Of a DNA stretch of 64,000 nt, positions 2,508-36,543 are shown one piece after another; positions within the stretch are counted from its first letter, which is position 1; every line of letters starts with the position of its first letter. Where the stretch lies: positions 25,866 through 89,865 of the forward strand of contig JACRJQ010000008.1 in the NCBI GenBank assembly GCA_016215405.1. Reading direction: 5' to 3'. A program made the position numbers and the translations under genes. The notes below the pieces were generated by a model that saw only the letters and a list, made by a program, of their open reading frames with translations, had not been told where the DNA came from and did no database searches. The DNA is from Candidatus Tayloriibacteriota bacterium (lineage in GTDB: Bacteria; Patescibacteriota; Minisyncoccia; Phycocordibacterales; UBA6065).

Positions 2508-3758
2508 CTAGATCTGCGGCTCGAGCGCGGCGCGGGTGTATCTATTCCCTGCGTTCCAGAGGAGCCACGAGTCGAGGCCCGCGTCGTACGCCGCGCGTAT
2601 CTGATCGCGAACCATCTCGGCCGTATAGGGTACGGGGTAATTATTATCCTGAAGCCACGGACGGATCTTCTTCGGATCGAATGAGGGCTTGGCGTATATC
2701 GCGGGCGTAGAGGTGCCTATGCGGGCGCCAGGCAGGGCGACCCGGGTCGTCGTAGCGACGGCGCGCGCGACCGCCCTGTCCATAGAATATTTGACCACCT
2801 CGTAGACGTGCGCGTTCGGGTCTCCGAGGCCAAGAAAGCTCTTCGGATAGTGGGACGGATAGACCATGGGCGCTATGTAGTGGAAATTCGGCAGCGCCTT
2901 CTCTAGTATCTGACCGATATTGAGGTCATCCTCGTTCGTCGCGGTCATGCCGAAGAGGTCGGCCGAGATGACCATCTTCGATGAGAGCTTGCCCCAGATA
3001 TATTCATAGAACTCGCGCATGACCTCGCTCTTCTCTTTCGATCCCGCCCATGGATAGGAGATATCCCTCATGTCGCCATCCGACGGGAATCGGATGTAAT
3101 CGAAATTTATCTCGTCGAATCCGATGGCGTAGGATTCTTCGGCGATGAGGACCAGATAGTCCCAATGCTCCTTCGCCCCCGCGTCTATCCACGGGATGCC
3201 CTTGTGGTCCCGCCAGACCGTCGACGTCGCGGACGCCTTCTTTACCGCGAGCTCGGGCCTCGCCTTCACCATGAAGGCGTCCTGGAAGGCGGCCACGCGA
3301 CCGATGACATAGATGCCTCGCGCATGAAGCTCGTCTATGAGGTCTTGCATGTCTCTGACAAAGCAGTCCCCTTTCGCGGCGGGTTTCAGAGCTTCCGACT
3401 CGGGCATAAAGGAGATGAATCCGTCATAGGTCTTTATGTCGACCACGACGGAGTTTAGCTCGGTCTCGTCGATGAGCTTCATGAGGTTGTTGCGCAGAGA
3501 CGGCGTAGACGCTACGCAGGAGGTCATGTAGATGCCGCGCACCGCCGAAGGCGTCGCGACGTGGGTCGCCTTTCGTACGTCTATCGCGGGCTCGGGCGCC
3601 GTAGTAGTCGCGACCTCGATCGCCGAGGCTCCGTGATAGGTGAGGTCGGAGAGTGGAGGCACCCCTATATAGAGGAAGGTAAAGGCAAAAACAAAGAGCG
3701 AGGCGAAGCTCACTCCTATCCTCCACGCCCTTACGCTCTCTTTGGTCCTCGCTCTCAA
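2508..3758 (-). CDS. Membrane-anchored putative glycoside hydrolase-like protein (GHL10/DUF187-type TIM barrel).
   Basis: 416 aa. N-terminal TM anchor (GVSFASLFVFAFTFLYIGV). Motifs GIYVIGRVAAFQD, GFDEINFDYIRFP and WLLWNAGN are reminiscent of the YngK/GHL10 family. Confidence 0.45.
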   Translation of the reverse strand: MRARTKESVRAWRIGVSFASLFVFAFTFLYIGVPPLSDLTYHGASAIEVATTTAPEPAIDVRKATHVATPSAVRGIYMTSCVASTPSLRNNLMKLIDETELNSVVVDIKTYDGFISFMPESEALKPAAKGDCFVRDMQDLIDELHARGIYVIGRVAAFQDAFMVKARPELAVKKASATSTVWRDHKGIPWIDAGAKEHWDYLVLIAEESYAIGFDEINFDYIRFPSDGDMRDISYPWAGSKEKSEVMREFYEYIWGKLSSKMVISADLFGMTATNEDDLNIGQILEKALPNFHYIAPMVYPSHYPKSFLGLGDPNAHVYEVVKYSMDRAVARAVATTTRVALPGARIGTSTPAIYAKPSFDPKKIRPWLQDNNYPVPYTAEMVRDQIRAAYDAGLDSWLLWNAGNRYTRAALEPQI

Positions 3759-3770: not shown

Positions 3771-3983
3771 TTAAGCCTGTGTTTCCGAGACCGGCGACTT
3801 TTCTACGGGAGCTGGCGCCTCCGCCCTCGCCCTCTGAGGCTCTTTGCCGGAAAGGTAAGAGAACGCCATGACGAGAAGCCCTAAAGCGATATAGAAGACG
3901 TCGTCCCATGCCCTCGGAAAGCCGAGGAACTGAAGGATCAGGACTACGAAGCCGAGCAAGACGAGGATGTTTCTGAATCTCAT
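3771..3983 (-). CDS. Small membrane protein (70 aa).
   Basis: MRFRNILVLLGFVVLILQFLGFPRAWDDVFYIALGLLVMAFSYL. Two predicted TM helices. Genome-typical codons. Confidence 0.4.
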   Translation of the reverse strand: MRFRNILVLLGFVVLILQFLGFPRAWDDVFYIALGLLVMAFSYLSGKEPQRARAEAPAPVEKSPVSETQA

Positions 3984-4021: not shown

Positions 4022-4723
4022 TTACTCCTCGGGCGAAAAGGGTTTCGCCTCCCTCTCGGCGCTCACGATGACGACGAATTCTCCGCGCAGGGTGCTGGGA
4101 TTGTTCTTAAACGACAGAAGGATCTCTTCCGCTGTGCCCGAAAGATAGGATTCGTACATCTTGGTGAGCTCGCGCAGTATCGTCACGTTCTTGCCCGAAC
4201 CCTTAAGCGACTCGAGCGCCTTCTCTATGCGATGCGGCGACTCGTAGAAGATATACGGCCTCTCGCCCGTCCTAATCTCCTCAAAGAGGGTCTGGCGGCC
4301 CTTCTTGTGCGGCAAGAATCCCAAGAAGACGAATTCGTGGAGGGGCCTGCCTGCGACGGATATCGCTGCGGTCAATGCCGAAGGCCCCGGAACGGCGACT
4401 ACCGGCACGTCGGGAAGGCGCGATCTCACTTCCGAGACGAGAAGCATCCCCGGATCCGATATCCCCGGAGTGCCCGCGTCGGTCACGAGCGCGATATCCT
4501 TGCCCGCTTCGAGAAGCTCGATGACGCGGTCCATCTTCGAAAGAGGGCTCTGGGCGTGAAAGCTCTCGGTCGCCGTCCGTATGTCGTATTTGGAGAAGAG
4601 CACCCGGGACGTACGCGTATCCTCGCAGAACACGACGGAAACCTCTTTAAGCACGCGCAAAGCGCGCAAGGTGACGTCCTCGAGGTTTCCTATCGGCGTA
4701 GCGACTATATAGAGAGTAGCCAT
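4022..4723 (-). CDS. rsmI: 16S rRNA (cytidine1402-2'-O)-methyltransferase RsmI.
   Basis: MATLYIVATPIGNLEDVTLRALRVLKEVSVVFCEDTRTSRVL...LVTDAGTPGISDPG. Canonical RsmI/tetrapyrrole-methylase-like motifs. The start was moved to the internal Met at 4723. Confidence 0.9.
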   Translation of the reverse strand: MATLYIVATPIGNLEDVTLRALRVLKEVSVVFCEDTRTSRVLFSKYDIRTATESFHAQSPLSKMDRVIELLEAGKDIALVTDAGTPGISDPGMLLVSEVRSRLPDVPVVAVPGPSALTAAISVAGRPLHEFVFLGFLPHKKGRQTLFEEIRTGERPYIFYESPHRIEKALESLKGSGKNVTILRELTKMYESYLSGTAEEILLSFKNNPSTLRGEFVVIVSAEREAKPFSPEE

Positions 4724-4750
4724 AGCGTATGGGGTAAGTATACTATCAAT

Positions 4751-5959
4751 GTGATAGTAAACCTCCAAAAGCCCGTCGTCTACGTCACGCGCGACATCGA
4801 GCGAGCTTTAGGCATGGAGCCTTCAGGGAGCTACTTCGTCATATCGAACGATACGGCATACGGCAGGAAGGTCCGGGAAGCGTATCCTGACAACGTCCTG
4901 CTCGTCCGCGACCGAGGCGAAACCTCGGTAAAAGATACCGAGGTTTCGCCTCGGTATCTCGATACATACGATCTCCTGCTCATGCCCGAGGTGCAGAGGG
5001 AAATCTCAGACCGCGACGCCGACCTCCTCGTATTCCAGAACACCCCCCGCATCGAAAGGCTCGCCAAAGAGAAGGGCTGGAGCCTCCTCAACCCGTCGGC
5101 CATGCTCTCGCGCGAGGTCGAAGAGAAGGTCTCCCAGGTGGCATGGCTCGGCGAGGACGCCTCTCTCCTGCCCCCTCACCGCATCGCGCTCGCAAAGGAC
5201 GCGAGGTTCGAAGGCGCGAAGTTCGTGCTGCAGTGGAACCACTCACATACAGGAGAAGGCACCTATGTCATAGATTCGGCCGAAGCACTCTCTTCTGTAG
5301 CCTCGAGATTCCCGGATCGAGAATGCCGGATAACGAGATTCGTCGAGGGGCCGGTATTCACCGTGAACTCGGTCGTCGCGGAGGCGATCATCGTCGGAAA
5401 CCCGAGCTATCAGATAACCGGCCTCGCGCCCTTCACCGACCTTCCCTTCTCTACCATAGGCAACGACTGGGACCTTCCCCGCGACGAAGAGTACGCGGCG
5501 GTGAGCGAGGAGGTCCGTAAGATGGCGATCCGTGTCGGAGAGAGGCTCCGGCTCTCGGGCTGGTACGGGCTCTTCGGCATCGACGCCGTCTACGACGAGA
5601 AAGCCGGAAAGACATATCTCCTCGAGATAAACGCGCGCCAGCCCGCCTCGACCACGCTCGAATCGAAGCTCCAGAAGAGCGACTCTATATTCGAAGCCCA
5701 CCTCTCTGCGCTCCTCGGCCTTCCGGCTGCGAGCGGTCCGGAGATACGAGGGGCGCAGATCGTAAAGCGCGTCACCCGAGAGGCTTATTCCATAGACGAA
5801 GCCGCCCTCTCGGATAAGGGCCTCTCCCTCATCGGATACGAGAACACCGAGCACAACAAGGAGATCCTGCGCATCCAATCCGAGAGAGGTATAATGAGAG
5901 CCCACAACAAGCTCAACGACCTAGGGATATCCATAGCATCATGCATCCGCAAGATATAG
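4751..5959 (+). CDS. ATP-grasp domain protein (peptide/amide ligase-like).
   Basis: C-terminal ATP-grasp signature LSGWYGLFGIDAVYDEKAGKTYLLEINARQPAST. The start is uncertain (GTG 4751 or ATG ~4812). The upstream part of the track ORF (4232-4750) overlaps rsmI and is not coding. Confidence 0.7.
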   Translation: MIVNLQKPVVYVTRDIERALGMEPSGSYFVISNDTAYGRKVREAYPDNVLLVRDRGETSVKDTEVSPRYLDTYDLLLMPEVQREISDRDADLLVFQNTPRIERLAKEKGWSLLNPSAMLSREVEEKVSQVAWLGEDASLLPPHRIALAKDARFEGAKFVLQWNHSHTGEGTYVIDSAEALSSVASRFPDRECRITRFVEGPVFTVNSVVAEAIIVGNPSYQITGLAPFTDLPFSTIGNDWDLPRDEEYAAVSEEVRKMAIRVGERLRLSGWYGLFGIDAVYDEKAGKTYLLEINARQPASTTLESKLQKSDSIFEAHLSALLGLPAASGPEIRGAQIVKRVTREAYSIDEAALSDKGLSLIGYENTEHNKEILRIQSERGIMRAHNKLNDLGISIASCIRKI

Positions 5960-6744
5960 ATACGGAAAAGACGGGAAGCTCAAAGCTCGAAGGCAAAGCC
6001 CGCGCCGTCGTGGATTCCTACCTCGCCTTGCCTCTCGGCACCAAGCCTTCTTGCCCCTATTTCAACAATCGCAGGCGCAAAGGGCGCGGAGGGCTGCGCG
6101 TCCTCGTCGGGAAAGGCGCGCCGGAGGAGATCGCGGGAGAGGCGGAGATATTCGCGCTCCGGCAAAGGATAAAGCTCAACCTTCTCTCGACCGATAAGCT
6201 CAAAGAGTTCCTCTGCGAAAACGACCTCGGCGTCGATTGCTCCGGTTTCGCCTATCATGCGCTCGATGCGCTCTGTCGGGAAAAGAGAGGAAGGGGCATA
6301 CAGAGCTTCGTGAAGTCGAATAGAACAGGAATCCTCGGAAAGATCCTCGCGAGGCTGCGCCCTGCCGAGAACCTCGGGGTGAGCTCCTTCAGAAACGACA
6401 AGAACGGCTCTGCCGTCAAAGTCAGAGACGCGATGCCCGGAGACCTCATCACCTTTATGGGCACGGGCCGCGACAAGACGTACAACCACATCCTCGTCAT
6501 AACAGGCGTCGATAGGCTCGGCGGCGATACGCGGCTCACCTACGCGCACTCCTACTCGTGGCCTTCGGACGGACTCTACGGCCACGGCGTCCGCGAGGGC
6601 GACATACTCGTCCACGGCGAAGACCTCCTCGGCGGGACATGGAAGGAACAGGGTCAGACCGGAAGCGACAACTATACGTTTACGAGCGCTCGCGACGCGA
6701 AAGAAGTCTCGCTGCGCCGGCTGAATTTCCTTGTTGAGAGATAA
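5941..6744 (+). CDS. Putative papain-like/NlpC-P60-like cysteine peptidase or amidase (Cys-His), overlapping the ATP-grasp gene by 19 nt.
   Basis: DLGVDCSGFAYHAL (candidate catalytic Cys) and downstream YNHILVITGVD (candidate His). The 19-nt overlap with the ATP-grasp gene suggests translational coupling. Confidence 0.4.
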   Translation: MHPQDIDTEKTGSSKLEGKARAVVDSYLALPLGTKPSCPYFNNRRRKGRGGLRVLVGKGAPEEIAGEAEIFALRQRIKLNLLSTDKLKEFLCENDLGVDCSGFAYHALDALCREKRGRGIQSFVKSNRTGILGKILARLRPAENLGVSSFRNDKNGSAVKVRDAMPGDLITFMGTGRDKTYNHILVITGVDRLGGDTRLTYAHSYSWPSDGLYGHGVREGDILVHGEDLLGGTWKEQGQTGSDNYTFTSARDAKEVSLRRLNFLVER

Positions 6745-6747: not shown

Positions 6748-6775
6748 CGCCGCGCCGTAAGGCGCGGCTTTTTCT
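6748..6775 (+). terminator. Rho-independent terminator hairpin (GCCGCGCC-GTAA-GGCGCGGC + T-run).
   Basis: gccgcgccgtaaggcgcggctttttcttc, directly after the stop of the peptidase-like gene. Confidence 0.5.
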
Positions 6776-6785
6776 TCTCTTGCTA

Positions 6786-6882: not shown

Positions 6883-6958
6883 AACGTTCGATTCAGAAGC
6901 CTATGAAAATTCATTCTAAACCTTCAAATTTGGCCCTTTCTGGCGTATACTCCACCTC

Positions 6959-8092
6959 ATGACCGACTTCCTCCCCACCCAGATACAAAGCCTCACCTCG
7001 CTCCTCGGCTGGGCCATCACATCGGCGCTTGTAGCCCTTATCTGGGCGCCTTTCCTTATAAAATATCTGCGCCTCTGGGGCATAACCAGGCAGAGCGCGG
7101 GGGACGCCACCATGGGCATGGAATCGCGCCAAGGCAAAGCCGCTACGCCTATCATGGGAGGCCTCCTCATAATACTCACGGTACTCCTCCTCACCTACTT
7201 CTGGAATTGGGAGAGGCGCTACACATGGGTGCCTATCGGCGTCCTGGGCATCTCAGCGCTCCTTGGCGCCGTCGACGACCTCCTCAACGTCTTCGGCTCC
7301 GAGCGCAGGCAGAGGTCTCTTTCCCAGACCTTTACCCTCATCCGCGTCCACAAACTCTGGTACGCGAAGCTCTGGCTCATCGTCACCTTGCCGTGGACGG
7401 TCTTCAAGAGAGCGACGACGATCTTCGGCTCCAAGCAGCGCCGCGGAGTGCTCGTGCACGAGAAGCTCCTTCTCCAATTCGCCGCCGGAGGAATATCGGC
7501 ATGGTGGATCTATTGGAAGCTCGGAGAGAGCTGGCAGAACATCTATGTGCCATGGCACGGCTATCTCGATATAGGGGTCCTCGTCGTGCCCCTTATAATC
7601 CTCATCGTCATGTTCACGGCGAACGCGGTTAACGTGTCCGACGGCATGGACGGCCTCGCCGGCGGCATGCTCATCCCGACTTTCGGCGCCCTCGCCTTCA
7701 TGGCGTGGGTATCCGGCTACAGCGAGCTCGCCGTCCTTAACTCAGTGACCGCCGGCGCTCTCCTCACCTATACCTATTTCAATATAAAGCCGGCCAGATT
7801 CCAGATGGGAGATGTAGGCAGCTTGGGCCTCGGCGGGCTCCTCGCCATAAACGCCCTCGCCACGAACTCGATGATCATCCTCCCTTTCATCGCCTTCATG
7901 TTCTACGCCGAAGCCCTGACGGTCATACTCCAGACGGTCGGACGCCACGTCTTCGGACGCCGCATATTTCGCATGGCTCCCCTCCATCACCATCTCGAGC
8001 TCCGCGGCTGGTCGGAAGAGAAGGTCATCATGCGCATGTGGGTCGTCCATCTTGGTTTCGTCGTCTTGGGCGTCTGGATAGGGCTCCACTAA
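6959..8092 (+). CDS. mraY: Phospho-N-acetylmuramoyl-pentapeptide transferase MraY.
   Basis: NAVNVSDGMDGLAGG, APLHHHLELRGW, 10 TM helices. Confidence 0.9.
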   Translation: MTDFLPTQIQSLTSLLGWAITSALVALIWAPFLIKYLRLWGITRQSAGDATMGMESRQGKAATPIMGGLLIILTVLLLTYFWNWERRYTWVPIGVLGISALLGAVDDLLNVFGSERRQRSLSQTFTLIRVHKLWYAKLWLIVTLPWTVFKRATTIFGSKQRRGVLVHEKLLLQFAAGGISAWWIYWKLGESWQNIYVPWHGYLDIGVLVVPLIILIVMFTANAVNVSDGMDGLAGGMLIPTFGALAFMAWVSGYSELAVLNSVTAGALLTYTYFNIKPARFQMGDVGSLGLGGLLAINALATNSMIILPFIAFMFYAEALTVILQTVGRHVFGRRIFRMAPLHHHLELRGWSEEKVIMRMWVVHLGFVVLGVWIGLH

Positions 8093-8093: not shown

Positions 8094-8741
8094 ATGTCGT
8101 ACCTCAACTGGGACACCAAAGTCGTAGCGGATCTATCCCCCGAGAACGTCGCAAAGATGTACGATGAAGGCTACGTGTTCACCAGGGTCGACAAAGGCGT
8201 GATGAACAGGACCCGCTCTTTCCGCGTGAACCTAAAGGCGTATCAGGCGTCCTCAGAGAACCGCCGTGTCCTACGCAAAGCCGAAGACCTCTCGCTTAGA
8301 GTGGAAGCCATCCCCTACCCCCTTTATTCCTGGAAGATAGGCAAGCTCGCCAAGGACTTCTACGAGAAGTTCGGAGACAACGTCTTTACGGCGAACAAGA
8401 TAAAGGAGATATTCACCGACGAAGCGAAGTCGAATTTCAACCGCGCCCTCGTCTATAGTTCGAAGAGATCGGGAGAAGACGTCGGATACGCGGTGTGCCA
8501 CGAGTCGAAGAGCCTCCTGCACTATTCCTACCCCTTCTACGTCGAGGAGCCCTCGCGCGGCATCGGCATGATGACCTTAGCCCTTGAGTGGGCGAAGGCT
8601 AAAGGCCTCGACTACGTCTATCTCGGCTCGCTCTCCCGCCCTTCTGACTCGTATAAGCTCCAATTCCTCGGCGGCGAGTGGTTCGACGGCGCGCATTGGC
8701 AGGTAGACACCGCCCCGCTCAAAGCCATCCTCAAGCCCTAG
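8094..8741 (+). CDS. Arginyl/leucyl-tRNA--protein transferase family (Bpt/ATE1 C-terminal domain-like, GNAT fold) protein lacking the N-terminal Cys cluster.
   Basis: LDYVYLGSLSRPSDSYKLQFLGGEWFDGAHWQ resembles Bpt DYLYLGYWI..S.KM.YK..F.P.E.L.DGAWQ. YSYPFY resembles MYSYFDP. The gene starts 2 nt after the mraY stop. Confidence 0.5.
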   Translation: MSYLNWDTKVVADLSPENVAKMYDEGYVFTRVDKGVMNRTRSFRVNLKAYQASSENRRVLRKAEDLSLRVEAIPYPLYSWKIGKLAKDFYEKFGDNVFTANKIKEIFTDEAKSNFNRALVYSSKRSGEDVGYAVCHESKSLLHYSYPFYVEEPSRGIGMMTLALEWAKAKGLDYVYLGSLSRPSDSYKLQFLGGEWFDGAHWQVDTAPLKAILKP

Positions 8742-9265: not shown

Positions 9266-10663
9266 ATGGAAAATCCCAAGAAGGTCCACTTCATAGGCAT
9301 CTGCGGCGTCGCTATGAGCGCCGTGGCGACTGCTCTGTGGCAGAAAGGATTTAAAGTGACAGGATCTGACGCGGGCTTCTATCCGCCCGTCTCGACGCAC
9401 CTCTCGAACGCGGGCATCCCCTACTATTCGGGCTGGCATCCGGAGAAGATGGTCGAGGGCGGCGCGCCGGACCTCGTCGTCGTGGGCAACGCCGTATCGA
9501 GCCAGAATCCCGAATTCGTCTACGTAAAAGAGAGAGGCATCCCTTTTAAATCCTATCCAGAAGCCGTGGGCGAACATCTCATAAAGCCCCATTCGGTGGT
9601 CGCTTCTGGCACGTACGGCAAGACGACTTCATCCGCGCTCCTCTCGCACATATGGAAGCATGCGAGCCTGAAGCCGTCGTACATGTACGGCGGACTCACT
9701 CAGGACGGCGCTCCGTCAGCCGCGGCGGATTCGGGCGAATGGTCTATCGTCGAAGGAGACGAATATTCCACTTCGAAATGGGACAAGGGAGCGAAATTCT
9801 TCCACTACAGGCCTACGCACCTCCTCCTCACGGCGGTAAAGTGGGACCATGCCGACCTCTACCCTACGGAAGAATCGTACTTCGACGCTTTCAAGAAGCT
9901 CGTCTCCCTCGTGCCCAAAGACGGCGTTATCGTCGGATGCATAGACGTCGAGAGCGTCCCCAAGCTCCTCGCGAAGAGGGATTTCATAAGCTACGGAGCT
10001 CACAAGGACGCGTCGTACAGGTACGAGAACATCGTCCAGACTCCTTCCGGACTCACTTTCGATATCGTCTACCACGGCAAGAAGTACAATATCGAATCCC
10101 CTCTCCTCGGCGCATACAACGCAGAGAACATCACGGGCTGCTTCGCTATGGCGTACGCGTGCGGCATCTCCCCCGGAGACATCTCGGATGCGATAAAGAC
10201 GTTTCCCGGGATGAAGAGGCGGCTCGAAAAGCGCTACGAGAACGCCGTGACAGTGATAGACGATATCGCCCATTCGCCGGAGAAGGCGCGATCGGTCCTC
10301 AACAACCTCCGCCACATCTACTCAGGTCTCGTCATCGCCGTCTACGAGCCGAACATCGGCAACCGCACGACCCAATCGAAGCCGGCGTACAAGGATGCGT
10401 TCAAGGACGCTGACACGGTCGTCATCCCCCGCCTCACGAAGCTCAAGGTAGACCCCGACAATCCTGAGGCGTATTTCGACGGAGACGAGCTCGCCGCGAC
10501 CATAGAAGAGAGCCACAAGGAGGTGCACTATCTCGACAGCGACGAAGAGCTCGTCGAATTCCTGGTAAAAGCCCGCGGCAAAGGCGACGTTATAGCGTTT
10601 TTAGGCTCCCACGGCTTTCGCGGGATGATAGAAGAGACGGTAAAGAGGCTGGCACAAAACTAG
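9266..10663 (+). CDS. Mur ligase: UDP-N-acetylmuramate:L-alanyl-gamma-D-glutamyl-meso-DAP ligase (Mpl)-like, or MurC.
   Basis: HFIGICGVAMSAVATAL...VTGSDAGFYPPVSTHL closely parallels the E. coli Mpl N-terminus (ILGICGTFMGGLA...VTGSDANVYPPMS). GTYGKTTSSA P-loop. Confidence 0.8.
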   Translation: MENPKKVHFIGICGVAMSAVATALWQKGFKVTGSDAGFYPPVSTHLSNAGIPYYSGWHPEKMVEGGAPDLVVVGNAVSSQNPEFVYVKERGIPFKSYPEAVGEHLIKPHSVVASGTYGKTTSSALLSHIWKHASLKPSYMYGGLTQDGAPSAAADSGEWSIVEGDEYSTSKWDKGAKFFHYRPTHLLLTAVKWDHADLYPTEESYFDAFKKLVSLVPKDGVIVGCIDVESVPKLLAKRDFISYGAHKDASYRYENIVQTPSGLTFDIVYHGKKYNIESPLLGAYNAENITGCFAMAYACGISPGDISDAIKTFPGMKRRLEKRYENAVTVIDDIAHSPEKARSVLNNLRHIYSGLVIAVYEPNIGNRTTQSKPAYKDAFKDADTVVIPRLTKLKVDPDNPEAYFDGDELAATIEESHKEVHYLDSDEELVEFLVKARGKGDVIAFLGSHGFRGMIEETVKRLAQN

Positions 10664-10857: not shown

Positions 10858-11022
10858 CTATTTTCCCTCGTCCACGATCTCTAGAGCGACCTTATCTCCA
10901 TCGAGAGAGACGACCTCGAGCACGATCCCGCACAGAGGGCATTCTATGACGTACCCCTTAGTGATCTTCGGATGCTTCGAGACGTCGATATCGTTCTTGC
11001 ATTCTGGGCAGACGCATTTCAT
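10858..11022 (-). CDS. LysW/ArgW-like zinc-ribbon mini-protein (54 aa).
   Basis: MKCVCPECKNDIDVSKHPKITKGYVIECPLCGIVLEVVSLDGDKVALEIVDEGK. It matches the LysW architecture CPEC...C..CG..LEVV.LD plus an acidic tail, but the C-terminus is EGK rather than ...EE/DWGE. The larger track ORF (10858-11292) is only its out-of-context upstream extension. Confidence 0.5.
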   Translation of the reverse strand: MKCVCPECKNDIDVSKHPKITKGYVIECPLCGIVLEVVSLDGDKVALEIVDEGK

Positions 11023-11086: not shown

Positions 11087-11920
11087 ATGTTCGGCATAGC
11101 ACTCACGGCGCTCGGGTCGTTTCTCGACGAGACGGCCGCTTCCATCGGAAAGTGGGCAGTCACCCACAAGAAAGAGCCCCTTATGGTCATGGGGTTCCTC
11201 AACGTATTCTGGGTAAGCGCCATCTTCGGCGCGGTCGCTCTGTTCAAGGGAGAGTTCGCGTTCGCGCCCGCCGCCCTTCCCCTCTTCCTCACAAGGTCGG
11301 TCTTCGAGATCGCTCAATTCCACATAGGCCTCCTCGCCACGGTCAAAAGCGACAGAAGCGCCTTAGGATTCCTCATGATCCTCACGCTCCCCCTCCTCCT
11401 CGCCGTTGATACCGTCCTCGGCTACGAGATGACGACCTTGCAGCTTCTCGGCGTCGCGACGATCGTCCTCTCCCTGGCCCTCCTTCTCGTAAATCACGGC
11501 ATATCGAAAAAAGGGCTCGGCTACGCCCTCTTCATCGCGATCAATCCCGTGATCACCATCTCGATGTTCAAGTACTCGATCACCCATTACAATACGGTCG
11601 AAGTCGAACAGAGCCTCATGTTCGGCGTGCTCGCCGTCTACGGCGCCGCCATGTCGTACGTCATGCACAGGGAGAATCCCTTCAAATACCTCAAGAACCC
11701 GCTCTGCCTCGCTCACTCGCTCTTGCGCGGCGTAAGCGGGACCATGCACAGCTTCGCGTACGTATTCGCGCCTGCGTCCGTCATCACCACGGCGAAGCGC
11801 GCCGCATCGCTCTTCGCGGCCGTAGTGTCCGGGAACGTCTACTTCCACGAGAAGCATCTCGTCTTGAAGCTCGCGTCGTTCTCGCTTATCGTCTTGGGCC
11901 TTATACTCATCGTAGTATAG
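11087..11920 (+). CDS. DMT-superfamily (EamA-like) membrane transporter, ~10 TM.
   Basis: 277 aa polytopic membrane protein with an internally duplicated 5-TM organisation. Confidence 0.5.
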   Translation: MFGIALTALGSFLDETAASIGKWAVTHKKEPLMVMGFLNVFWVSAIFGAVALFKGEFAFAPAALPLFLTRSVFEIAQFHIGLLATVKSDRSALGFLMILTLPLLLAVDTVLGYEMTTLQLLGVATIVLSLALLLVNHGISKKGLGYALFIAINPVITISMFKYSITHYNTVEVEQSLMFGVLAVYGAAMSYVMHRENPFKYLKNPLCLAHSLLRGVSGTMHSFAYVFAPASVITTAKRAASLFAAVVSGNVYFHEKHLVLKLASFSLIVLGLILIVV

Positions 11921-11929: not shown

Positions 11930-12811
11930 ATGCTTACCCCTCAGATAGAAGCGCCAGAGATAGCAGAGGAGCTCGGCATCCCGAAGCTCTATATAAAGCG
12001 CGAAGACCTGCATCCGTACGGGTCGCATAAGGGCCGCTCTATCCCTATGATGATAGACCTCAAGGCCGCCCGAGGGGCCAAAGAATTCGCCATATCTTCT
12101 TCCGGGAACGCGGCGATAGCGGCCGCTCGGCATATCGAGAAGAGGAACCTCGCGGGAGACGACCTGAGGCTCACCATCTTCGTAGGCGAGAGGATAGGCG
12201 AGGCGAAAAGAAAAGCGCTCGAGAACGTATCGATCGACGAGAGGATCAAGGTCGTGGACTCTCCCCGCCCCCTTCAGGCCCTCTTCAACCTGCTCAAAAG
12301 CGAGAACGGAAAGCCCGAGAGCCTGCGCCAGTCGACCGACCCTGAGGCTCTGCCAGGCTATAAATCGCTCGCCTTCGAGATCGCAGGCACCCCCGACCTG
12401 TCCGCGGTCTTCATCGGCACGTCTTCGGGGACATCCGCCCAGGCGCTCGCTGAATATCTCATAGAGCACGAAAAGAACGCCCAGATACACGTCGTCCAGA
12501 CGCGCGGGAACTCCCCTATCGCTCGGGCGTTCGATGCCGAAGAATACGAAGGCGAACCCTCTCTCGCCGATGCCATCGTAGACAAGGTCGCTCACAGGAA
12601 GGACGCCCTCGAAGAGGCGGTGCGGAGGACCGGAGGCTCGGGATGGGTCGCTTCTAATGCCGACATAGAGAAGGCCGTAAGGCTTTTGAGCGAGAAGGCG
12701 AATGTCCGAGCCACGCCGAACGGAGCCTTGGGCCTCGCCGGCGTCATACGCGCGATCTCCAAAGGCTGGAAGCCAGAAGGCGCGGTCGTAGCGATCGTGA
12801 CGGGAAGGTAA
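11930..12811 (+). CDS. PLP-dependent fold-type II enzyme (threonine synthase / cysteine synthase superfamily).
   Basis: LHPYGSHKGRSIPMM (PLP-lysine loop), glycine-rich loops SSGNAAIAAA and GTSSGTSAQA. Confidence 0.6.
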   Translation: MLTPQIEAPEIAEELGIPKLYIKREDLHPYGSHKGRSIPMMIDLKAARGAKEFAISSSGNAAIAAARHIEKRNLAGDDLRLTIFVGERIGEAKRKALENVSIDERIKVVDSPRPLQALFNLLKSENGKPESLRQSTDPEALPGYKSLAFEIAGTPDLSAVFIGTSSGTSAQALAEYLIEHEKNAQIHVVQTRGNSPIARAFDAEEYEGEPSLADAIVDKVAHRKDALEEAVRRTGGSGWVASNADIEKAVRLLSEKANVRATPNGALGLAGVIRAISKGWKPEGAVVAIVTGR

Positions 12812-13307: not shown

Positions 13308-14666
13308 TTATTGTGTCGCCTTCTGCGCCGCCTCGGACGCTCCGTCGAGGACGGCGCCGAGATCAAGCGACCCCACCACCGCCTCCCAACCGTCCCGCGT
13401 CGCGGTCTTCTGCACTGAGGACGCGCCGTCAGGGGAGCTCTCGTAGCGCTCGATCCACTCCGCCTGCCCGTTCCCCGAGAACGCGCTCTTCGCGATGTCG
13501 ATGATGGCCGACATCGGAAGAAGGGAGCGGTTATACGGATGGGCGAACGATCCCGAGAGGAGCAGACGCTCGAAGGCAAGATGCCATTCGGGGCTGCACT
13601 CCTTGGTGCCGTTCCCCATGGCTTCCACGATCGAGGCCTTCCTGCCCGTCCGCGCCTTGTGCTCCGCCATGCGAACCATGGTAGCGAAGTCTTCGAGCGA
13701 CGGGCCGCCGTTCGGGTTCGAGACGACTTGGTATTGCCCGGACGAGCTACGGATCGCGACGATTGCCCAAGGGCCCTCGATCGACGATTTCGCGGCTTTT
13801 CCGGCATACTCGTTGTCGCTTTCGATGAAGAACGCGCGAGCCTTTGCCGAATCGACATCGATCTCGACCGCGACGGGCTTCTCCTTCATTTCGGCTAACG
13901 CCTTCATGTGGAGGACCTCGTCGAGATAGAGAGCGCGGAACGCCTCTTTGAGCCAGCGCTCGCGCACGGGAGACCGCATCTTCGACGCGATCGCCGCAAG
14001 CTCGGTCACCCGCTCGCCTTTGTGGGCGACGCTCCCCCGGATATAGCGGGAGACCTTCTGGGTCGAGTTGTGCGCCTTGTTGTAGCCACGATGGAGGGAG
14101 TAATCCTTCCAAGCGGCTTCGAGGTCGAACCTCTCGTCCGTCCTCCCGAACACGATGGCGTCGTAAGCGGCAGAGGCCCAGAGGTATGTCGCCTCCTGGT
14201 CTCCGCCCCCTTTGACGCGATGCATGATCTTGATGAGGTTGGCGAGCTGGGTATGTCCCACCTTCGGCTGCGTATCGCACCAGAGGGTCTCCTCGAGGAG
14301 CTCCTTCATACCCGGCTTTCCGAGGACGCGCAGGCGCTGCGCCACGAGAAGCGCCGCGCAGGTGCCCTGAAGGCGCCCTTGCGGCGTATGCTCGTCGAAG
14401 ACGTAGCCCTGCGGATTCTTGACCGTCCCGCCCAGACCGATGTAGATCCGATTGGGGTAGGTCGTTTCGAGCTTTTCGGCGAGGAAGACGAGCTTGGCGT
14501 TTTTTACGCCAGGGAACGCCTCCGCGCCGAACCGGTCGAACTGCCAAGTGCCGAGCATCTCGTCGTTATCCGCGCGGTTATGCGCATAGACGGCGACGAT
14601 GGGCTCGACCCGTGACAGGTTGGTGTGGTTGCGGCCGTTATGGCCGCGATTTTCGATGTGCTTCAT
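13308..14666 (-). CDS. Hypothetical protein, possibly a diverged DHH-family phosphoesterase.
   Basis: IVAVYAHNRADNDEMLG resembles DHH motif I (H-x3-D-x-D). VFDEHTP and RVKGGGDQE loosely resemble motif III and the DHHA1 GGGH motif. The start was taken at MKHIENRGH (the track start at 14714 is TTG). Confidence 0.4.
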   Translation of the reverse strand: MKHIENRGHNGRNHTNLSRVEPIVAVYAHNRADNDEMLGTWQFDRFGAEAFPGVKNAKLVFLAEKLETTYPNRIYIGLGGTVKNPQGYVFDEHTPQGRLQGTCAALLVAQRLRVLGKPGMKELLEETLWCDTQPKVGHTQLANLIKIMHRVKGGGDQEATYLWASAAYDAIVFGRTDERFDLEAAWKDYSLHRGYNKAHNSTQKVSRYIRGSVAHKGERVTELAAIASKMRSPVRERWLKEAFRALYLDEVLHMKALAEMKEKPVAVEIDVDSAKARAFFIESDNEYAGKAAKSSIEGPWAIVAIRSSSGQYQVVSNPNGGPSLEDFATMVRMAEHKARTGRKASIVEAMGNGTKECSPEWHLAFERLLLSGSFAHPYNRSLLPMSAIIDIAKSAFSGNGQAEWIERYESSPDGASSVQKTATRDGWEAVVGSLDLGAVLDGASEAAQKATQ

Positions 14667-14757
14667 TTTCTGGATGGGTCTTGCGACCCGACTGGGTTTC
14701 TGTGTTTGGGGCAATTGCCCTCTCGAGGGCGTACATGAAATGCCGACCTCTACCTAC

Positions 14758-14839: not shown

Positions 14840-16258
14840 CTAGAGGGTCTCTACGAGGAGCATGTTGGTCTCCGTCGCCTTGCCGAAAGGCAGGGCGGAC
14901 GCCATGACCACTTTGTCTCCCTTCTTCGCGAGCTTCGACTTGAGGAAGTACTCCCGGACCATCTTGGCGACCTCGTTGAAGTCGGTCGTGCGGTGGACGA
15001 GGACAGGCTGCGTGCCCCACGAGAGGATGGACTGCCTGAAAGTCACCTCGTTAGGGGTGAACACATAGATAGGCTGGGTCGGCTTGTGGCGCGATATGGA
15101 TCGAGCGGATCGGCCCGATTCGGTGAACGAGACGAGATATTTCGCCCCCACTCGATCGGCGTTCTTGACGGCCGAGAGGGTCACGGATTCGCCCGAAGTG
15201 AGGATGGTGCCGGGCACGACGTCGAGGAGCTGCTTCTTGACGAGGCTGCCTTCGACCTGGAGCGCGACCTTCGACATGACCTCGACGGCCTGGACCGGGA
15301 AGTCGCCGAGCGTCGTCTCTTCCGAGAGCATGACAGCGTCGGTGCCGTCGACGATCGCGTTCGCGACGTCGGATACCTCCGCGCGCGTAGGAACGGGCGC
15401 CTTTATCATCGATTCGAGCATCTGGGTCGCCGTGATGACAGGCTTGCCCGCCTCGTTACACTTCCTGATGAGCATCTTCTGGGCCGCAGGGACCTTCTCT
15501 GCGGGTATCTCGATCGCGAGGTCTCCTCGAGCGACCATGATGCCGTCGGCAAGGGCGATTATCTGGTCGATACAGGAGAGGGCCTGAGGGGTCTCGATCT
15601 TGGCGATGATCCTCGCCTTGGACTTCCTCGCTTGGAGGATGGCGCGGAGCTCCTCGATGTCAGAAGGCCTGCGGACGAACGAGAGGGCGATGAAGTCCAC
15701 CTTGTTCTTTATGCCGAATTCGAGGTCGGAGCGATCCTTCTCCGTGAGGGAGGATATCGAGAGGTCCGAGTCCGGCAGGTTCACTCCCCTCTTGCCCTTT
15801 ATCTCGCCGCCGACGAGGATCTTGCAGACGACGTCGTTGCCCTTCACGTCGAGGACTTCGAGCTTCTTCCTGCCGTCGTGGAGGAATACGATATGGCCCT
15901 TCTTCACCTCTTTCGCGAAATTAGGATAGTTCACCGAGACGCGCGTCTCGTCGCCCTCGACCTTCTCGGTCGTGAGCGTGAACTTCTTGCCTTCGACGAG
16001 CATGACCGATTCGGTCTTGAAGGTGCCGATGCGGATCTTCGGGCCGCCGAGGTCCTGGAGGGTGGCCGCCGGGATGCCGGTCTTCTCCACGGCCTTCTTG
16101 AGGTTCTTCACGCGGTTGCCGTGCTCGGTGAAATCGCCGTGAGAGAAGTTGAGGCGCATCACGTTCATCCCGGCCTTAAGGAGCTCGGTGAGCCTCTCTT
16201 CGGACTCGGTCGCTGGGCCTATGGTACAGACGATCTTCGTTTTCTTGGCGGTTATCAT
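14840..16258 (-). CDS. pyk: Pyruvate kinase.
   Basis: MITAKKTKIVCTIGPA...MNVMRLNFSHG...GPKIRIG...MVARGDLAIEIP. Full length, 472 aa. Confidence 0.95.
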   Translation of the reverse strand: MITAKKTKIVCTIGPATESEERLTELLKAGMNVMRLNFSHGDFTEHGNRVKNLKKAVEKTGIPAATLQDLGGPKIRIGTFKTESVMLVEGKKFTLTTEKVEGDETRVSVNYPNFAKEVKKGHIVFLHDGRKKLEVLDVKGNDVVCKILVGGEIKGKRGVNLPDSDLSISSLTEKDRSDLEFGIKNKVDFIALSFVRRPSDIEELRAILQARKSKARIIAKIETPQALSCIDQIIALADGIMVARGDLAIEIPAEKVPAAQKMLIRKCNEAGKPVITATQMLESMIKAPVPTRAEVSDVANAIVDGTDAVMLSEETTLGDFPVQAVEVMSKVALQVEGSLVKKQLLDVVPGTILTSGESVTLSAVKNADRVGAKYLVSFTESGRSARSISRHKPTQPIYVFTPNEVTFRQSILSWGTQPVLVHRTTDFNEVAKMVREYFLKSKLAKKGDKVVMASALPFGKATETNMLLVETL

Positions 16259-16405
16259 TTCTTGCGTGGTTTATATCCTAAAAATAAGACGAGTCCTTAT
16301 GATACAGAAAAACGGCGTTTTTTCAAACGATTCAACGATAAAGCCCGACCAAGCGCTCGATCCCTGCGACCTGCGGGACAAAGAACGGTCGGGCGCGATA
16401 CGATC

Positions 16406-17032
16406 CTAGACTGCCGGATGAGGGTCGGGAGCCTTTACAGGGAGCGCTTTGAGGCTCTGGTATACGTAGACCGTCGCGAGAAGGCATACGGGAGACGTGA
16501 TGAGAAGGCCGACCCCTAGAGCGAGGGCCCCGAGAAGATTGAGGAGGAAGAGGACGACCGAGAATCCGAGAAGGTCCCAGAATCGCCCTTTCGTAAGCGA
16601 CCAGCTCCTCTTTATGGACTCGAGGGGCTTCATATCCTCCTCGACCAAAGCGAAGGCGAAGACGCCGAGCCTCACCACGAGATAGACGCCGGGAAGTATG
16701 AGCGCCGCGAAACCGGCGATATAAGATACCGTAAAGAGGAGGGTCGCGAGGACGTAGCGGCCGAACATCCCCCAGCTCGCCGCGAAGATATCCTTCGCCT
16801 CCGGCTTCCCTCCCGCATGGATCTTGAGGCCGACCCGAACGAACGTGAGCATCGCGAAGAGGTTGACCGCCATCCCCAGAAGCTGCGCGGCCAGGCTCTT
16901 GTCTCCCGTGAATCCGATTATGCCCGCGGCGACGAAGAACCCGAGGGTGAGAAGGACGAGGAATTTCACGTTCTCTCGGAATTTCGTCCAACCGTAAGAA
17001 AGGGCCTCCTTTATAGTGAATGTAGATTGCAT
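16406..17032 (-). CDS. Polytopic membrane protein, function unknown.
   Basis: 208 aa, ~6 TM helices (GFFVAAGIIGF, LATLLFTVSYIAGFAALILPGVYLVV, LLGFSVVLFLLNLLGALALGVGLLI). Confidence 0.5.
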   Translation of the reverse strand: MQSTFTIKEALSYGWTKFRENVKFLVLLTLGFFVAAGIIGFTGDKSLAAQLLGMAVNLFAMLTFVRVGLKIHAGGKPEAKDIFAASWGMFGRYVLATLLFTVSYIAGFAALILPGVYLVVRLGVFAFALVEEDMKPLESIKRSWSLTKGRFWDLLGFSVVLFLLNLLGALALGVGLLITSPVCLLATVYVYQSLKALPVKAPDPHPAV

Positions 17033-17082: not shown

Positions 17083-17895
17083 TTATTCCTTCGCGAGCGC
17101 GTGGCCTGCTCCCCTGCCTAAGGCATAGATCCTGCCTATCTCCCGGGCCGAGAGCGACTTATTGAAGAAATGTATATCGTCGATAAGGAGCGTAGAGTCG
17201 AAATAGGGCGTCGGAAAATAGAGGACCGAAGTGGCGTCGAGATTGATCCCGATAAGGACCGAGGCGTCGGCTTTGCCTTGGAGCGCCCCGTCGACATATA
17301 TGGCGAGAGTGTTCGCGGTCCGATCGAGGACGCATGAGGCGTAGTGCCATTGACCGTCGTTATAAGCCGTCGTGCCTACGATAGAGAGCGTGCCGTTCGT
17401 GTGGACATAGCACTGAAGCGCGCCGCCAGTAAGATTCATTATCATCCCGCTCGCATTCGAGCTGTCGGATTTGCGCATGAGCGCGGCGCCCGCCTGAGTT
17501 GTTTTAAACCACATCGCTCTCGTAGCGCTGCCGAGCCCTATATCGAGGATGGCGCTGTCGGGCACGGTCACTCCCTGACCGTTGGTCATGGAGAGCGAGC
17601 AGCCGACCGCCATCGGAGAATCGTTCGATACCCATACGGGAGAGCCGTTGAAGGCGCCGTTGTTCCCGTAGCCTGAGCGGTCGCGGACCGTCGTACCCGA
17701 ACATTCGTCGAGGTCCCAAAGGCCGACGAGTTGGTCGCCGAGAGCCCTGTCGGTGGTAGCGGCCGCTTGCTTCCCCGCCGCTATCCTCGCCTTGGCGCGA
17801 GCGGCGTTAAGAGAGGAAAGGACCACGCTCGAAAGGAGCGATATGATCGATATGACGACGAGAAGCTCTATGAGGGTGAAGGCGCGGCGAGACAT
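17083..17895 (-). CDS. Type IV pilin / pseudopilin with prepilin N-terminal methylation motif fused to a ConA-like/LamG lectin domain.
   Basis: MSRRAFTLIELLVVISIISLL (class III signal), then DGQWHYASCVLDRTANTLAIYVDGAL (LamG-like). Confidence 0.75.
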   Translation of the reverse strand: MSRRAFTLIELLVVISIISLLSSVVLSSLNAARAKARIAAGKQAAATTDRALGDQLVGLWDLDECSGTTVRDRSGYGNNGAFNGSPVWVSNDSPMAVGCSLSMTNGQGVTVPDSAILDIGLGSATRAMWFKTTQAGAALMRKSDSSNASGMIMNLTGGALQCYVHTNGTLSIVGTTAYNDGQWHYASCVLDRTANTLAIYVDGALQGKADASVLIGINLDATSVLYFPTPYFDSTLLIDDIHFFNKSLSAREIGRIYALGRGAGHALAKE

Positions 17896-19351: not shown

Positions 19352-20855
<1,504 letters not shown>

Positions 20856-21260
20856 AAACCGCAGATGGAGATCCCGAAGGACTTCTATCTGAGGCGAACG
20901 GAACAAAATAGATCACAGTATGCGAACTATCTTCTTCCTGGGAGATTCACGGGTGCTTTCCCGCCTCCACGATCCTATGGAGCATGGGGTCGAAAGCCCT
21001 CTTACAAATTTTCATTTGAATAGAGCCTACCCTCATGCTTATATCCGAAGAATACACTTGAACTTGCACAATACAGTTAGGATACTGTTTTACCAGTACA
21101 CTTTAACTTGCATTTGTTCTCTCCGCCGTGGCCAATGTGGCCCGGCGGAATTGATTATCTCAATATTTCAACGATCTCCTCACTAAGAGACCGAGGGAAT
21201 CAAAAAGTGCTTTACCAGCACTTTCTGACGTCCCACAAGGCTCTCAATGAGGTAAGGGTA

Positions 21261-26347: not shown

Positions 26348-27241
26348 TTAGGACCTCCTCTGCCACTTGAACACCGTGACGAGGAGGGGCGATCCGAGGA
26401 ATATGGACGAGTACGTTCCGGCGGTGATCCCCACGAGGAGCGCGAGGGCGAAATGCTTCGTCGCTTCGGGTCCGACGACGTAAAGGACGGCTATGGCGAT
26501 AAGGGTCGTAAGGGACGTGTTGATAGAACGGACGAACGTCTGGCCTATCGACTCGCCGACGATGGCGTCGAAGGATTTCCTGTCACCGTGGGCCCTTAGA
26601 TTCTCCCTCACGCGATCGAAGACGACGATAGTGTCATGGATAGAGAAGCCGAGGATGACGAGGAGGGCGGTCACGAAGAGAGTGTCCACCTCGACCCCCG
26701 AGAAGCGGCCGAGCGCCGCGAACAGGCCTGCGGGGATGAGGATGTCGTGCAAGAGCGCGACGATGGCGATAAGGCCGTACTTCCACGACGACACAGGCTT
26801 AGACACCTTCCTAAAGACGAAAGCTATGAAAAGGACGATGGCGATGAGGACGAGGACGATGGACATCCACGACTTCTCGAGAGCCTCCTTTCCCAAGATA
26901 GGGCCTACCGAATCGAATCTCTTCTCGGTAAGCGCCGCTCCGCCGCCCAAAGCGGCGAGGACGGCGTTATGAGCTTCGGGAGAGAGTTCCTGGGTCCTTA
27001 AGATATAGCCCGCCGACCCAGTCTCTCGTATCGAATACTCGCCGAGCTTGAGAGCCTCGAGCTTCGGCCTGAGATTTTCGGCCGTAGGCCTGGTCGAAGT
27101 GCCGTATTCGACCTCGATGATGGAACCTCCCTTGAAATCGATTCCCGGCCTAAGTCCCCACGCGAAGATCGCGTAAAGTGATGCTATGACGAGCGCCGCG
27201 GAGACTGCGTAGAAGAATTTCCTGTGCGTGACTATGAACAT
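26348..27241 (-). CDS. secF: Protein-export membrane protein SecF.
   Basis: MFIVTHRKFFYAVSAALVIASLYAIFAWGLRPGIDFKGGSIIEV. 6 TM helices. Immediately downstream of secD. Confidence 0.85.
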   Translation of the reverse strand: MFIVTHRKFFYAVSAALVIASLYAIFAWGLRPGIDFKGGSIIEVEYGTSTRPTAENLRPKLEALKLGEYSIRETGSAGYILRTQELSPEAHNAVLAALGGGAALTEKRFDSVGPILGKEALEKSWMSIVLVLIAIVLFIAFVFRKVSKPVSSWKYGLIAIVALLHDILIPAGLFAALGRFSGVEVDTLFVTALLVILGFSIHDTIVVFDRVRENLRAHGDRKSFDAIVGESIGQTFVRSINTSLTTLIAIAVLYVVGPEATKHFALALLVGITAGTYSSIFLGSPLLVTVFKWQRRS

Positions 27242-27248
27242 GGCGGTA

Positions 27249-28580: not shown

Positions 28581-28678
28581 AATCGTTACGGTGTTTGTAA
28601 TGTAGGGCTATACTAGCCCCTTTTTCCCTATTTTGCAAAAGAAGATCCGCAGGCACGACGCCCGCGGATCCTTCGAAG

Positions 28679-36420: not shown

Positions 36421-36543
<123 letters not shown>

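Follow-up and report, generated by a model that had tools for sequence, protein, structure and literature searches.

An overlapping ligase–peptidase gene pair

We analyzed a stretch of 64,000 nucleotides (nt) from a Candidatus Tayloriibacteriota bacterium (contig JACRJQ010000008.1, positions 25,866 to 89,865 of the forward strand), hereafter the window, and focused on two overlapping genes that encode an ATP-grasp ligase and a putative cysteine peptidase of the NlpC/P60 fold. Positions are those of the window, and protein lengths are given in amino acids (aa). The two genes and the signals around them are as follows.

4717..4744, + strand: sigma-70-like promoter candidate, TAGCCA, 16-nt spacer, TATACT (consensus match)
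4751..5959, + strand: ATP-grasp carboxylate-amine ligase gene, 402 aa, GTG start, stop TAG at 5957-5959
5941..5959, + strand: overlap of the two genes, 19 nt, from the peptidase ATG at 5941 to the ligase stop TAG at 5957-5959
5941..6744, + strand: putative NlpC/P60-fold cysteine peptidase/amidase gene, 267 aa, ATG start, isoelectric point (pI) 9.3
6749..6778, + strand: intrinsic-terminator-like hairpin, GCCGCGCC-GTAA-GGCGCGGC, 8 of 8 G-C pairs, followed by TTTTTCTTCT (T-run)
6923-6951, ahead of mraY: second promoter-like site (consensus match)

The gene coordinates, the 19-nt overlap, the length of the second gene and its DCSGFAYHAL motif were all as described in the original prediction, which a model had made from the sequence alone. 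The open reading frame (ORF) of the ligase extends over 4232-5959, and its 5' portion overlaps rsmI on the opposite strand. We placed the start at GTG 4751, giving 402 aa, because all of 29 diverse homologues begin about eight residues ahead of the conserved V-Y-V-T-R-D-I-E-R-A-L-G, with N-termini of the form M-x-I-x-L-K-K-P-x-V-Y-V-T-R-D-I-E-R-A-L-G. The sequence GGGA lies about 14 nt 5' of the peptidase ATG. In the annotation of the 189-kb contig, which belongs to a metagenome-assembled genome of Candidatus Taylorbacteria (Paceibacteria, candidate phyla radiation), the two proteins appear at 100% identity as "ATP-grasp domain-containing protein" and "hypothetical protein HZA81_03705". Both are real genes rather than chance ORFs, because each belongs to a large family of homologues. 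More than 1125 sequence clusters matched the ligase in a database protein search, and 168 clusters at 90% identity matched the peptidase, with E values down to 1e-176. When 1.84 billion representative proteins were searched with a profile of the NlpC-like family, 189 representatives at 50% identity matched with E ≤ 1e-30.

The terminator-like hairpin starts 5 nt past the peptidase stop. The promoter candidate ends 7 nt ahead of the ligase GTG, so that the leader would be very short or absent. Because of the hairpin after the peptidase and the promoter-like sites before the ligase and before mraY, the pair looks like a separate two-gene transcription unit in the window genome. Among these signals only the terminator is persuasive; promoter-like sites in this region are no commoner than in shuffled sequence and are weak evidence when taken alone.

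An ATP-grasp ligase outside the curated families

The first gene had been predicted to encode an ATP-grasp enzyme of about 400 residues, and the 402-aa protein indeed matched Pfam ATP-grasp_3 just over threshold (E 1.5e-5, 25.6 bits against a cut-off of 23.2). The AlphaFold2 (AF2) model was confident (predicted local distance difference test, pLDDT, 93.2) and showed a three-domain architecture with an extra C-terminal domain. The features that define the superfamily, namely the three-domain fold, a lysine in the central domain, a flexible glycine-rich loop and an acidic/Asn magnesium-ligand motif, were all found. Residues K126, H164-S-H166-T-G-x-G-T171, D278, E292 and N294 were invariant in the 29 homologues. 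The magnesium-binding and catalytic motif, E292-I-N294-A-R296-Q-P-A-S, lies in an invariant L-L-E-I-N-A-R-Q-P-A-S and is of the E-x-N-x-R kind that is common to the PurK, biotin-carboxylase and L-amino-acid-ligase group.

The nearest structures were PurK and PurT, followed by the amino-acid and peptide ligases BL00235, PylC, PGM1, BesA and RizA. LysX/ArgX (16-17), Ddl/VanA (15-17) and RimK (14.8) scored clearly lower in the same comparison. Together with BacD, the PurK/PurT enzymes and these L-amino-acid and peptide ligases share the three-domain architecture, the extra C-terminal domain and the E-x-N-x-R motif with the present protein, but their identity to it is only 10-17%, and neither a purine nor an antibiotic biosynthesis context surrounds the pair; no pur genes were found in its conserved neighbourhood. 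The closest curated model was NF005096 (PRK06524, labelled "biotin carboxylase"), matched by 29 of 29 family members with a best E of 6.5e-22, far under the cut-off. Three more specific identities were tried and rejected. The ligase fell outside the Ddl models used to recognise standard Ddl/Van enzymes (TIGR01205, Pfam Dala_Dala_lig_N and _C), and outside both the models and the structural clade of the RimK/LysX/GshB type. PurK and PurT were its best structural matches only, the TIGR01161 and TIGR01142 scores being 11.8 bits (cut-off 318) and 16.4 bits (cut-off 502). The ligase is thus a member of the ATP-grasp superfamily that stands outside every curated family within it, and it is neither of the standard enzymes, Ddl or RimK, against which the original prediction had been framed. 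A sequence search of PDB chains with the ligase, the peptidase and both family profiles gave no meaningful match (best E 0.17-0.9, to Rab GTPases and similar proteins). By sequence, neither the ligase nor the peptidase lies close to any characterised protein.

A cysteine peptidase of the NlpC/P60 fold

The second protein had been described as papain-, NlpC/P60- or BtrH-like with one conserved downstream histidine. Its Cys/His papain-like character stood, and it could be narrowed to the NlpC/P60 fold, with two conserved histidines downstream of the cysteine. In the motif D99-C100-S101-G-F-A-Y-H-A-L, the first three residues are kept in 65, 66 and 66 of 67 orthologues, respectively; H183 is kept in all 67 and H203 in 64, the exceptions having N, Q or A. 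The sole orthologue without the cysteine sits in a locus with an apparent frameshift. The model has the papain-like α+β fold, and helix 100-116 begins at C100, which places a cysteine at a helix N-terminus with a histidine and a third polar residue, as in NlpC/P60 enzymes (MEROPS C40). As modelled, the protein is an NlpC/P60-fold Cys/His enzyme with the putative triad C100/H183/H203, outside the curated families. The original prediction had also considered that this protein might be a non-catalytic domain, which the retention of the catalytic residues contradicts. In three loci (L061, L064 and L065) we observed short variants of the pair, with an ATP-grasp protein of about 285 aa, compared with about 400 aa elsewhere, and an NlpC-like protein of about 230 aa in which the Cys-His-His triad is intact.

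No Pfam or NCBIfam model matched the window peptidase over threshold; the nearest were NLPC_P60 (E 0.034) and CHAP (E 0.035). Its PF00877 score is 14.6 bits, compared with the 23 required, and the L073 orthologue reaches 24.0 bits. A few homologues carry precomputed PF00877 or PF05257 matches, and some reach the NLPC_P60 or CHAP thresholds. Between 115 and 130 of the 267 residues align with NlpC/P60 structures. Residues 1-95 form a family-specific basic region (C-P39-Y40-F-N42-N43-R-R-R...G-K58-G59) in which P39, Y40, N42, N43, K58, G59 and E67 are near-invariant, and a C-terminal extension, likewise family-specific, contains W234, E236 and R260. The D-C-S-G motif and the Cys-His-His triad are shared with the NlpC/P60 peptidases MepS, YkfC, AvPCP/NpPCP, LytE and CwlO. 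Unlike these, the present peptidase has no SH3b domain, LysM domain or signal peptide, carries its own N-terminal region and C-terminal extension, and is coupled or fused to a ligase.

The maximum of the Kyte-Doolittle hydropathy in a 19-residue window is 1.55 for the ligase and 0.55 for the peptidase. At these low values, neither protein contains a stretch hydrophobic enough for a signal peptide, membrane helix or membrane anchor. Both would thus reside in the cytoplasm and would meet wall precursors rather than the mature wall. Among the peptidases named above, YkfC is another cytoplasmic enzyme, and its substrates are free stem peptides.

Coupling and fusion of the two genes

To define the distribution of the pair, we scanned one genome per GTDB species, which yielded 72 loci. 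All came from metagenome-assembled genomes (MAGs) of the Patescibacteria type, except two weak Spirochaetota matches that covered the NlpC core only. ORF clustering and tblastn showed that, wherever the contig permits, in about 70 species-level genomes, the ligase gene lies directly upstream of the peptidase gene. Among 54 separately encoded pairs, the genes overlap in 33 and are 0-30 nt apart in 14, and only one pair is interrupted (by 1.2 kb). A single fused protein is encoded in seven loci of the scan, for example the 674-aa protein of L021. When the best 150 of the 189 family members at 50% identity were examined, 27 proved to be ligase–peptidase fusions of 612-779 aa with the ligase N-terminal; D-C-S-G is kept in all 27 and E-x-N-x-R in 26. 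The module is a single polypeptide in about one lineage in six, and the coupling goes well beyond the 19-nt overlap from which it had been predicted. That such fusions recur in many independent assemblies strongly indicates that the ligase and peptidase activities cooperate.

In four further, Magasanikbacteria-like lineages, the ligase carries a C-terminal Nudix domain and the peptidase gene follows directly.

L073:15122-16765, - strand: ligase–Nudix protein, Nudix box intact
L062:2245-3858: ligase–Nudix protein, Nudix box degenerate
L054:5310-7055: ligase–Nudix protein, Nudix box intact
L063: ligase–Nudix protein

A triple ATP-grasp–Nudix–NlpC fusion was also considered and was rejected, as the longer fusions (718-779 aa) have no Nudix box.

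Peptidoglycan gene neighbourhood

The genes that flank the pair in the window are listed below, with the number of loci in which each was seen where this was counted.

4022..4723, - strand: rsmI, 16S rRNA 2'-O-methyltransferase family (TP_methylase E 1e-34), divergent, 27 nt from the ligase start
6959..8092, + strand: MraY-like phospho-MurNAc-pentapeptide transferase (TIGR00445 179.8 bits, cut-off 192), downstream neighbour of the pair in 55 loci
8094..8741, + strand: Bpt/ATE-like (GNAT/Fem-fold) putative aminoacyl-tRNA transferase, 215 aa, 47 loci
9266..10663, + strand: Mur ligase of MurC/Mpl type (murC 267 bits, cut-off 335; mpl 234 bits, cut-off 389), 46 loci
10858..11022, - strand: LysW-like zinc ribbon, 54 aa (Pfam Zn_ribbon_LysW, PF21344, 35 bits, cut-off 27)
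11930..12811, + strand: threonine-synthase (ThrC)-like fold-type-II pyridoxal phosphate (PLP) enzyme, 293 aa (PDB 6cgq, E 3e-16), 44 loci

The pair had been placed next to rsmI. That is correct for the divergent rsmI gene of the window, but it missed the peptidoglycan precursor context, which comprises MurB, MraY, Fem/Bpt-like, MurC/Mpl and MurD proteins. Following the suggestion that conservation of the neighbourhood be examined, we found the pair adjacent almost everywhere in the 72 loci and situated among mur and mraY genes. The divergent upstream neighbour is rsmI in 25 loci, mostly Paceibacteria, and murB in 23, in Magasanikbacteria and relatives; murD lies downstream of the pair in eight loci. 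The same gene order was seen in three metagenome contigs reached from the LysW-like protein. In rearranged blocks, the pair keeps murB as a direct neighbour in L044 and has mraY no more than 7 kb away in L040 and L047. Two distant NlpC-like homologues occur without a ligase, one directly between mraY and the ThrC-like gene (L069:2076-5098) and the other two genes upstream of murT-gatD in a Saccharimonadia MAG (L072:9992-13818).

The MurC/Mpl-type neighbour scores under both model cut-offs, and its identity as MurC or Mpl is ambiguous. The Bpt/ATE-like gene begins 2 nt past the mraY stop. Its product matches the NCBIfam arginyltransferase model with E 1.5e-8, far under the cut-off, and Pfam ATE_C with E 0.047, and its orthologues also give weak ATE_C matches; from these similarities, it may act like a Fem transferase that moves an amino acid from tRNA onto a wall precursor. 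An ATP-grasp protein of archaeal pseudomurein clusters (NF053643; OG0001014) likewise lies beside MraY-like and Mur-ligase genes. Its profile is weakly matched by 28 of the 29 ligase family members (best E 3.9e-11, far under the 500-bit cut-off), and the match of the window ligase is confined to the magnesium-binding core, residues 252-297. OG0001014 is itself uncharacterised, and an NlpC/P60 partner is not mentioned for it (PMC11915815).

No canonical Ddl was found by tblastn, with an E. coli DdlB query, in the 64-kb window or within 10 kb on either side of the pair in the 72 loci; the search covered that span of each genome and says nothing about absence of ddl genome-wide. The genes murB, murC, murD and mraY, in contrast, are present there. 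A core-gene table for Parcubacteria lists murE and murF and does not list Ddl, but murC, murD and mraY are missing from it as well, so that it is uninformative on the absence of Ddl (PMC4508563).

Several smaller features of the block were also seen. A separate NudF-like Nudix gene lies between the MurC and LysW-like genes in at least six loci. In the window, a 277-aa membrane-protein-like ORF without a family match (11087-11920) lies between the LysW-like and PLP genes, where several other loci have no room for it. On the other side of the pair, a putative DUF4015 glycoside hydrolase (2508-3758, - strand, E 5e-86) has a hydrophobic N-terminal stretch, possibly a membrane anchor, and adjoins a gene for a 70-aa hydrophobic protein (3771-3983); both are kept upstream of rsmI in about 25 loci.

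A possible role in wall-precursor peptide metabolism

Because the nearest structures to the peptidase cut wall peptides, the ligase lies near amino-acid and peptide ligases (after PurK and PurT), and the pair recurs among mur and mraY genes, we tentatively read the pair as a cytoplasmic two-enzyme module that would trim and ligate peptidoglycan stem-peptide precursors. We give this reading slightly less than an even chance, and we regard any single specific reaction as unlikely. Its basis is what was observed of the two folds, the intact catalytic residues, the cytoplasmic location, the tight coupling with its fusions, and the peptidoglycan context. From these we infer that the substrates are peptidoglycan peptides, as well as the bond made, the bond cut, and whether the two activities are sequential or opposing.

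In the proposed mechanism, the ligase would turn a carboxylate into an acyl-phosphate, which it would then join to an amine. The resulting peptide or isopeptide bond would lie either in a building block of the stem peptide or in a stem peptide linked to a nucleotide. The peptidase, with Cys100, His183 and His203, would form a thioester at Cys100 and cut a γ-glutamyl or LD-type amide in the same class of molecule. The acyl-phosphate and thioester steps are established chemistry of the ATP-grasp and NlpC/P60 superfamilies, respectively. In the version that we prefer, "trim and rebuild", the peptidase would strip the wrong or spent end from mis-built or scavenged stem peptides, the ligase would supply or re-add the correct residue or residues, and the product would pass to the neighbouring MurC/Mpl-like ligase and MraY. 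Elsewhere, the trimming is done by LdcA, YkfC and VanX/VanY, and the ligation by Ddl and the branch ligase Aslfm. We favor this version because of the ambiguous MurC/Mpl neighbour, the lack of a Ddl within 10 kb in the 72 loci, the Nudix fusions and the host-dependent lifestyle reported for these bacteria. The Nudix fusions, with an intact Nudix box in some, would fit a nucleoside-diphosphate-linked substrate such as a UDP-MurNAc-peptide.

The position of an ATP-grasp ligase gene among mur and mraY genes is shared with the wall-related ligases Ddl/VanA and the D-aspartate branch ligase Aslfm. In Van clusters, too, a ligase has peptidases as partners, which reshape the ends of precursors, but VanX and VanY are zinc enzymes, in contrast to the cysteine peptidase of the present pair. 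An improbable further reading is that in Paceibacteria and ABY1 the ligase takes the place of Ddl without being homologous to it, and that the peptidase is its built-in proofreader.

Several observations weigh against a stem-peptide role. The argument draws on fold and context, and "trim and rebuild" in particular is tentative as regards a possible lack of canonical ddl, ldcA, alr or murI in these genomes. As for the Nudix domain fused to the ligase, it belongs to the generic MutT type, which gives no pointer to UDP-sugars. A strong terminator divides the pair from mraY, and in the window genome the two genes seem to form a transcription unit of their own. The conserved neighbourhood also includes rsmI, rlmH, secA and the gene of a ribosome hibernation factor. 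Genomes of the candidate phyla radiation (CPR) keep long-range synteny (PMC4508563). Because long gene orders are kept and non-wall genes share the neighbourhood, synteny alone is weak evidence, and the peptidoglycan context is supportive rather than conclusive.

A literature search found no publication describing the pair, which is a CPR-specific ligase–peptidase module in a wall-precursor cluster; in databases, its families are named "ATP-grasp domain-containing", "hypothetical" or "CHAP domain-containing". Paceibacteria and their relatives make up a very large, uncultivated share of the bacterial tree and have minimal genomes. Retention of the pair, tightly coupled, in more than 1000 sequence clusters indicates that it is probably important to these bacteria. 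If the stem-peptide role is correct, bacteria that are presumed to draw their building blocks from a host would have a new cytoplasmic step for making or salvaging the wall, and annotations of the CPR wall pathway as "complete" or "incomplete" would need revision. Both proteins have confident structure models, and both could be expressed and tested with commercial wall peptides.

Alternative explanations

The alternative that survives best, although we consider it improbable, is an opposing synthetase and amidase that together control how much of a small amide, one with no relation to peptidoglycan, is present in the cytoplasm, in the style of the glutathionylspermidine and trypanothione synthetase-amidases (the former abbreviated GspSA). 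The ligase would build a conjugate and the papain-like amidase would break it, with one activity switched off under stress. The architecture fits: in both cases an ATP-dependent carboxylate-amine ligase is joined, in one chain or as a coupled pair, to a papain-like Cys-His amidase of the CHAP/NlpC-P60 superfamily. The single polypeptide of GspSA has its counterpart in the 27 fusions, and the window version consists of two overlapping genes. That the pair appears as an independent transcription unit in the window genome is also in line with this explanation. The details, however, differ. The domain order is the reverse, the ligase being N-terminal in the present fusions, and this ligase is of the PurK/L-amino-acid-ligase type: a Gsp synthetase is not among its 60 best structural matches, and no GSP_synth Pfam match was found. 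The peptidase is nearer to NlpC/P60 wall endopeptidases than to CHAP proteins, with Gsp-type structural matches much weaker than those to peptidoglycan endopeptidases. The pair has a peptidoglycan context, not one of thiol or polyamine metabolism, and that context repeats in independent arrangements. To our knowledge, CPR bacteria also have little small-molecule biosynthesis able to feed such a conjugate. The pair thus resembles units of a ligase and a papain-like amidase but is not a member of the GspSA family, and it represents a second, independently evolved fusion of this kind, after the glutathionylspermidine and trypanothione synthetase-amidases.

A second alternative assigns the pair to the LysW-like protein, which the original prediction had singled out as a carrier candidate. 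The 54-aa protein is genuine: it exceeds the Pfam cut-off, as listed above, and scores 23.6 bits with TIGR01206, under the cut-off of 53.2. Its four cysteines and last seven residues, E-I-V-D-E-G-K, are invariant in about 45 loci, and its family comprises 1638 clusters, all of about 54 aa and all from CPR genomes; a literature search found no description of a CPR LysW-like protein ending in ...DEGK. Under this explanation, which we judge to have only a small chance of being right, the ligase would add an amino acid to the ...EIVDEGK tail (at the γ-carboxyl of Glu52, the ε-amine of Lys54 or the C-terminal carboxylate), the ThrC-like PLP enzyme would modify it, and the peptidase would release the product, possibly a wall-specific amino acid. 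As in the LysW/LysX system, a zinc ribbon with a strictly conserved tail is found in the same block as a ligase and a hydrolase that could serve as loader and releaser. Invariance of the last seven residues is what would be expected of a tail that enters active sites, and two enzymes binding one tail would account for the fusions. About 45 loci have both the LysW-like gene and the pair, the two families are of similar size (1638 and more than 1125 clusters), and the peptidase is basic (pI 9.3) where the LysW-like protein is acidic (pI 4.9). NlpC/P60 enzymes typically cut bonds from γ-glutamyl to an α-amine, which is the chemistry of the LysW linkage.

Gene linkage speaks against it. In the window, the LysW-like gene lies on the opposite strand, 4 kb away, with mraY, the Bpt-like gene, rlmH and murC in between. 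In all contexts that we saw, the gene stands between the MurC/Mpl-like ligase and the ThrC-like gene and follows these two rather than the pair; no LysW-like gene occurs within 10 kb of the pair in the rearranged loci L040, L044 and L047. The tail of LysW is EDWGE, the terminal Glu of which carries the substrate on its γ-carboxyl, but the present tail ends in Lys and thus has no acidic terminus ending in Glu. The ligase is not of the RimK/LysX type. Neither a RimK-type LysX gene nor LysZ, LysY, LysJ or LysK genes were found in the conserved block of the 72+ loci, and the block has no kinase, reductase or aminotransferase gene. The peptide-tagging, cyanophycin-like and amino-group-carrier pathways proposed at the outset found no specific evidence in these data, and of the carrier proposal what remains is a real protein with a conserved tail. 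We assign a low probability to a new carrier or scaffold pathway, embedded in the wall-precursor cluster, that would combine the pair with the ...EIVDEGK protein and the ThrC-like enzyme. If it exists, the ligase would load or reload the carrier tail with an amino acid, the ThrC-like enzyme would convert it, and the peptidase would set free an amino acid specific to the wall, such as a diamino acid in place of diaminopimelate or lysine. Reports generally describe the CPR bacteria with the ThrC-like gene as deficient in most amino-acid synthesis.

A third possibility, which we hold to be quite improbable, is that the pair tags the C-termini or side chains of proteins or peptides unrelated to the wall, by a RimK- or TTL-like ligase with a trimming peptidase, and that its neighbourhood is inherited gene order. 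ATP-grasp and peptidase pairs are known in tagging systems, and the presence of rsmI, rlmH, hibernation factor and SecA genes in the neighbourhood, as well as the candidate promoter and the terminator of the pair itself, would agree with this. No candidate target gene adjoins the pair, however, and the peptidase fold best matches wall peptidases.

Very improbable, finally, is an amidotransferase like MurT/GatD or carbamoyl-phosphate synthetase, in which the Cys-His hydrolase would donate ammonia as a glutaminase does and the ATP-grasp enzyme would amidate a stem-peptide carboxylate (for example, D-iso-Glu to D-iso-Gln). Amidotransferases classically combine an acyl-phosphate-forming enzyme with a Cys-His hydrolase, as a pair or a fusion. 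We saw no MurT/GatD in the loci of Paceibacteria and Magasanikbacteria, and the distant NlpC-like gene of L072, which has no ATP-grasp partner, has MurT-GatD two genes away, but we know of no NlpC/P60 member that serves as a glutaminase subunit, an NlpC-like gene beside GatD would be redundant, and the evidence from L072 is one locus with a weak match (E 3e-6).

Other features of the window

The rRNA operon of the window is unlinked, the 16S rRNA gene (19353-20856, - strand) lying 16 kb from the 23S (36628-40120, - strand) and 5S (36428-36535, - strand) genes. At 3493 nt, the 23S match exceeds the 2925-nt model by a length that points to about 570 nt of insertions, and it contains small ORFs, for example at 37585-37914 and 38294-38599. 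Four long ORFs of 460-510 aa have no Pfam match (13308-14714, - strand; 14993-16519, + strand; 24733-26262, - strand; 27228-28616, + strand), and some of them may not be genes, since greedy ORF choice is unreliable at 58% G+C. At 17083-17895 (- strand), a type IV pilin-like protein combines an N-terminal methylation motif with a Laminin_G_3/concanavalin-like lectin domain.

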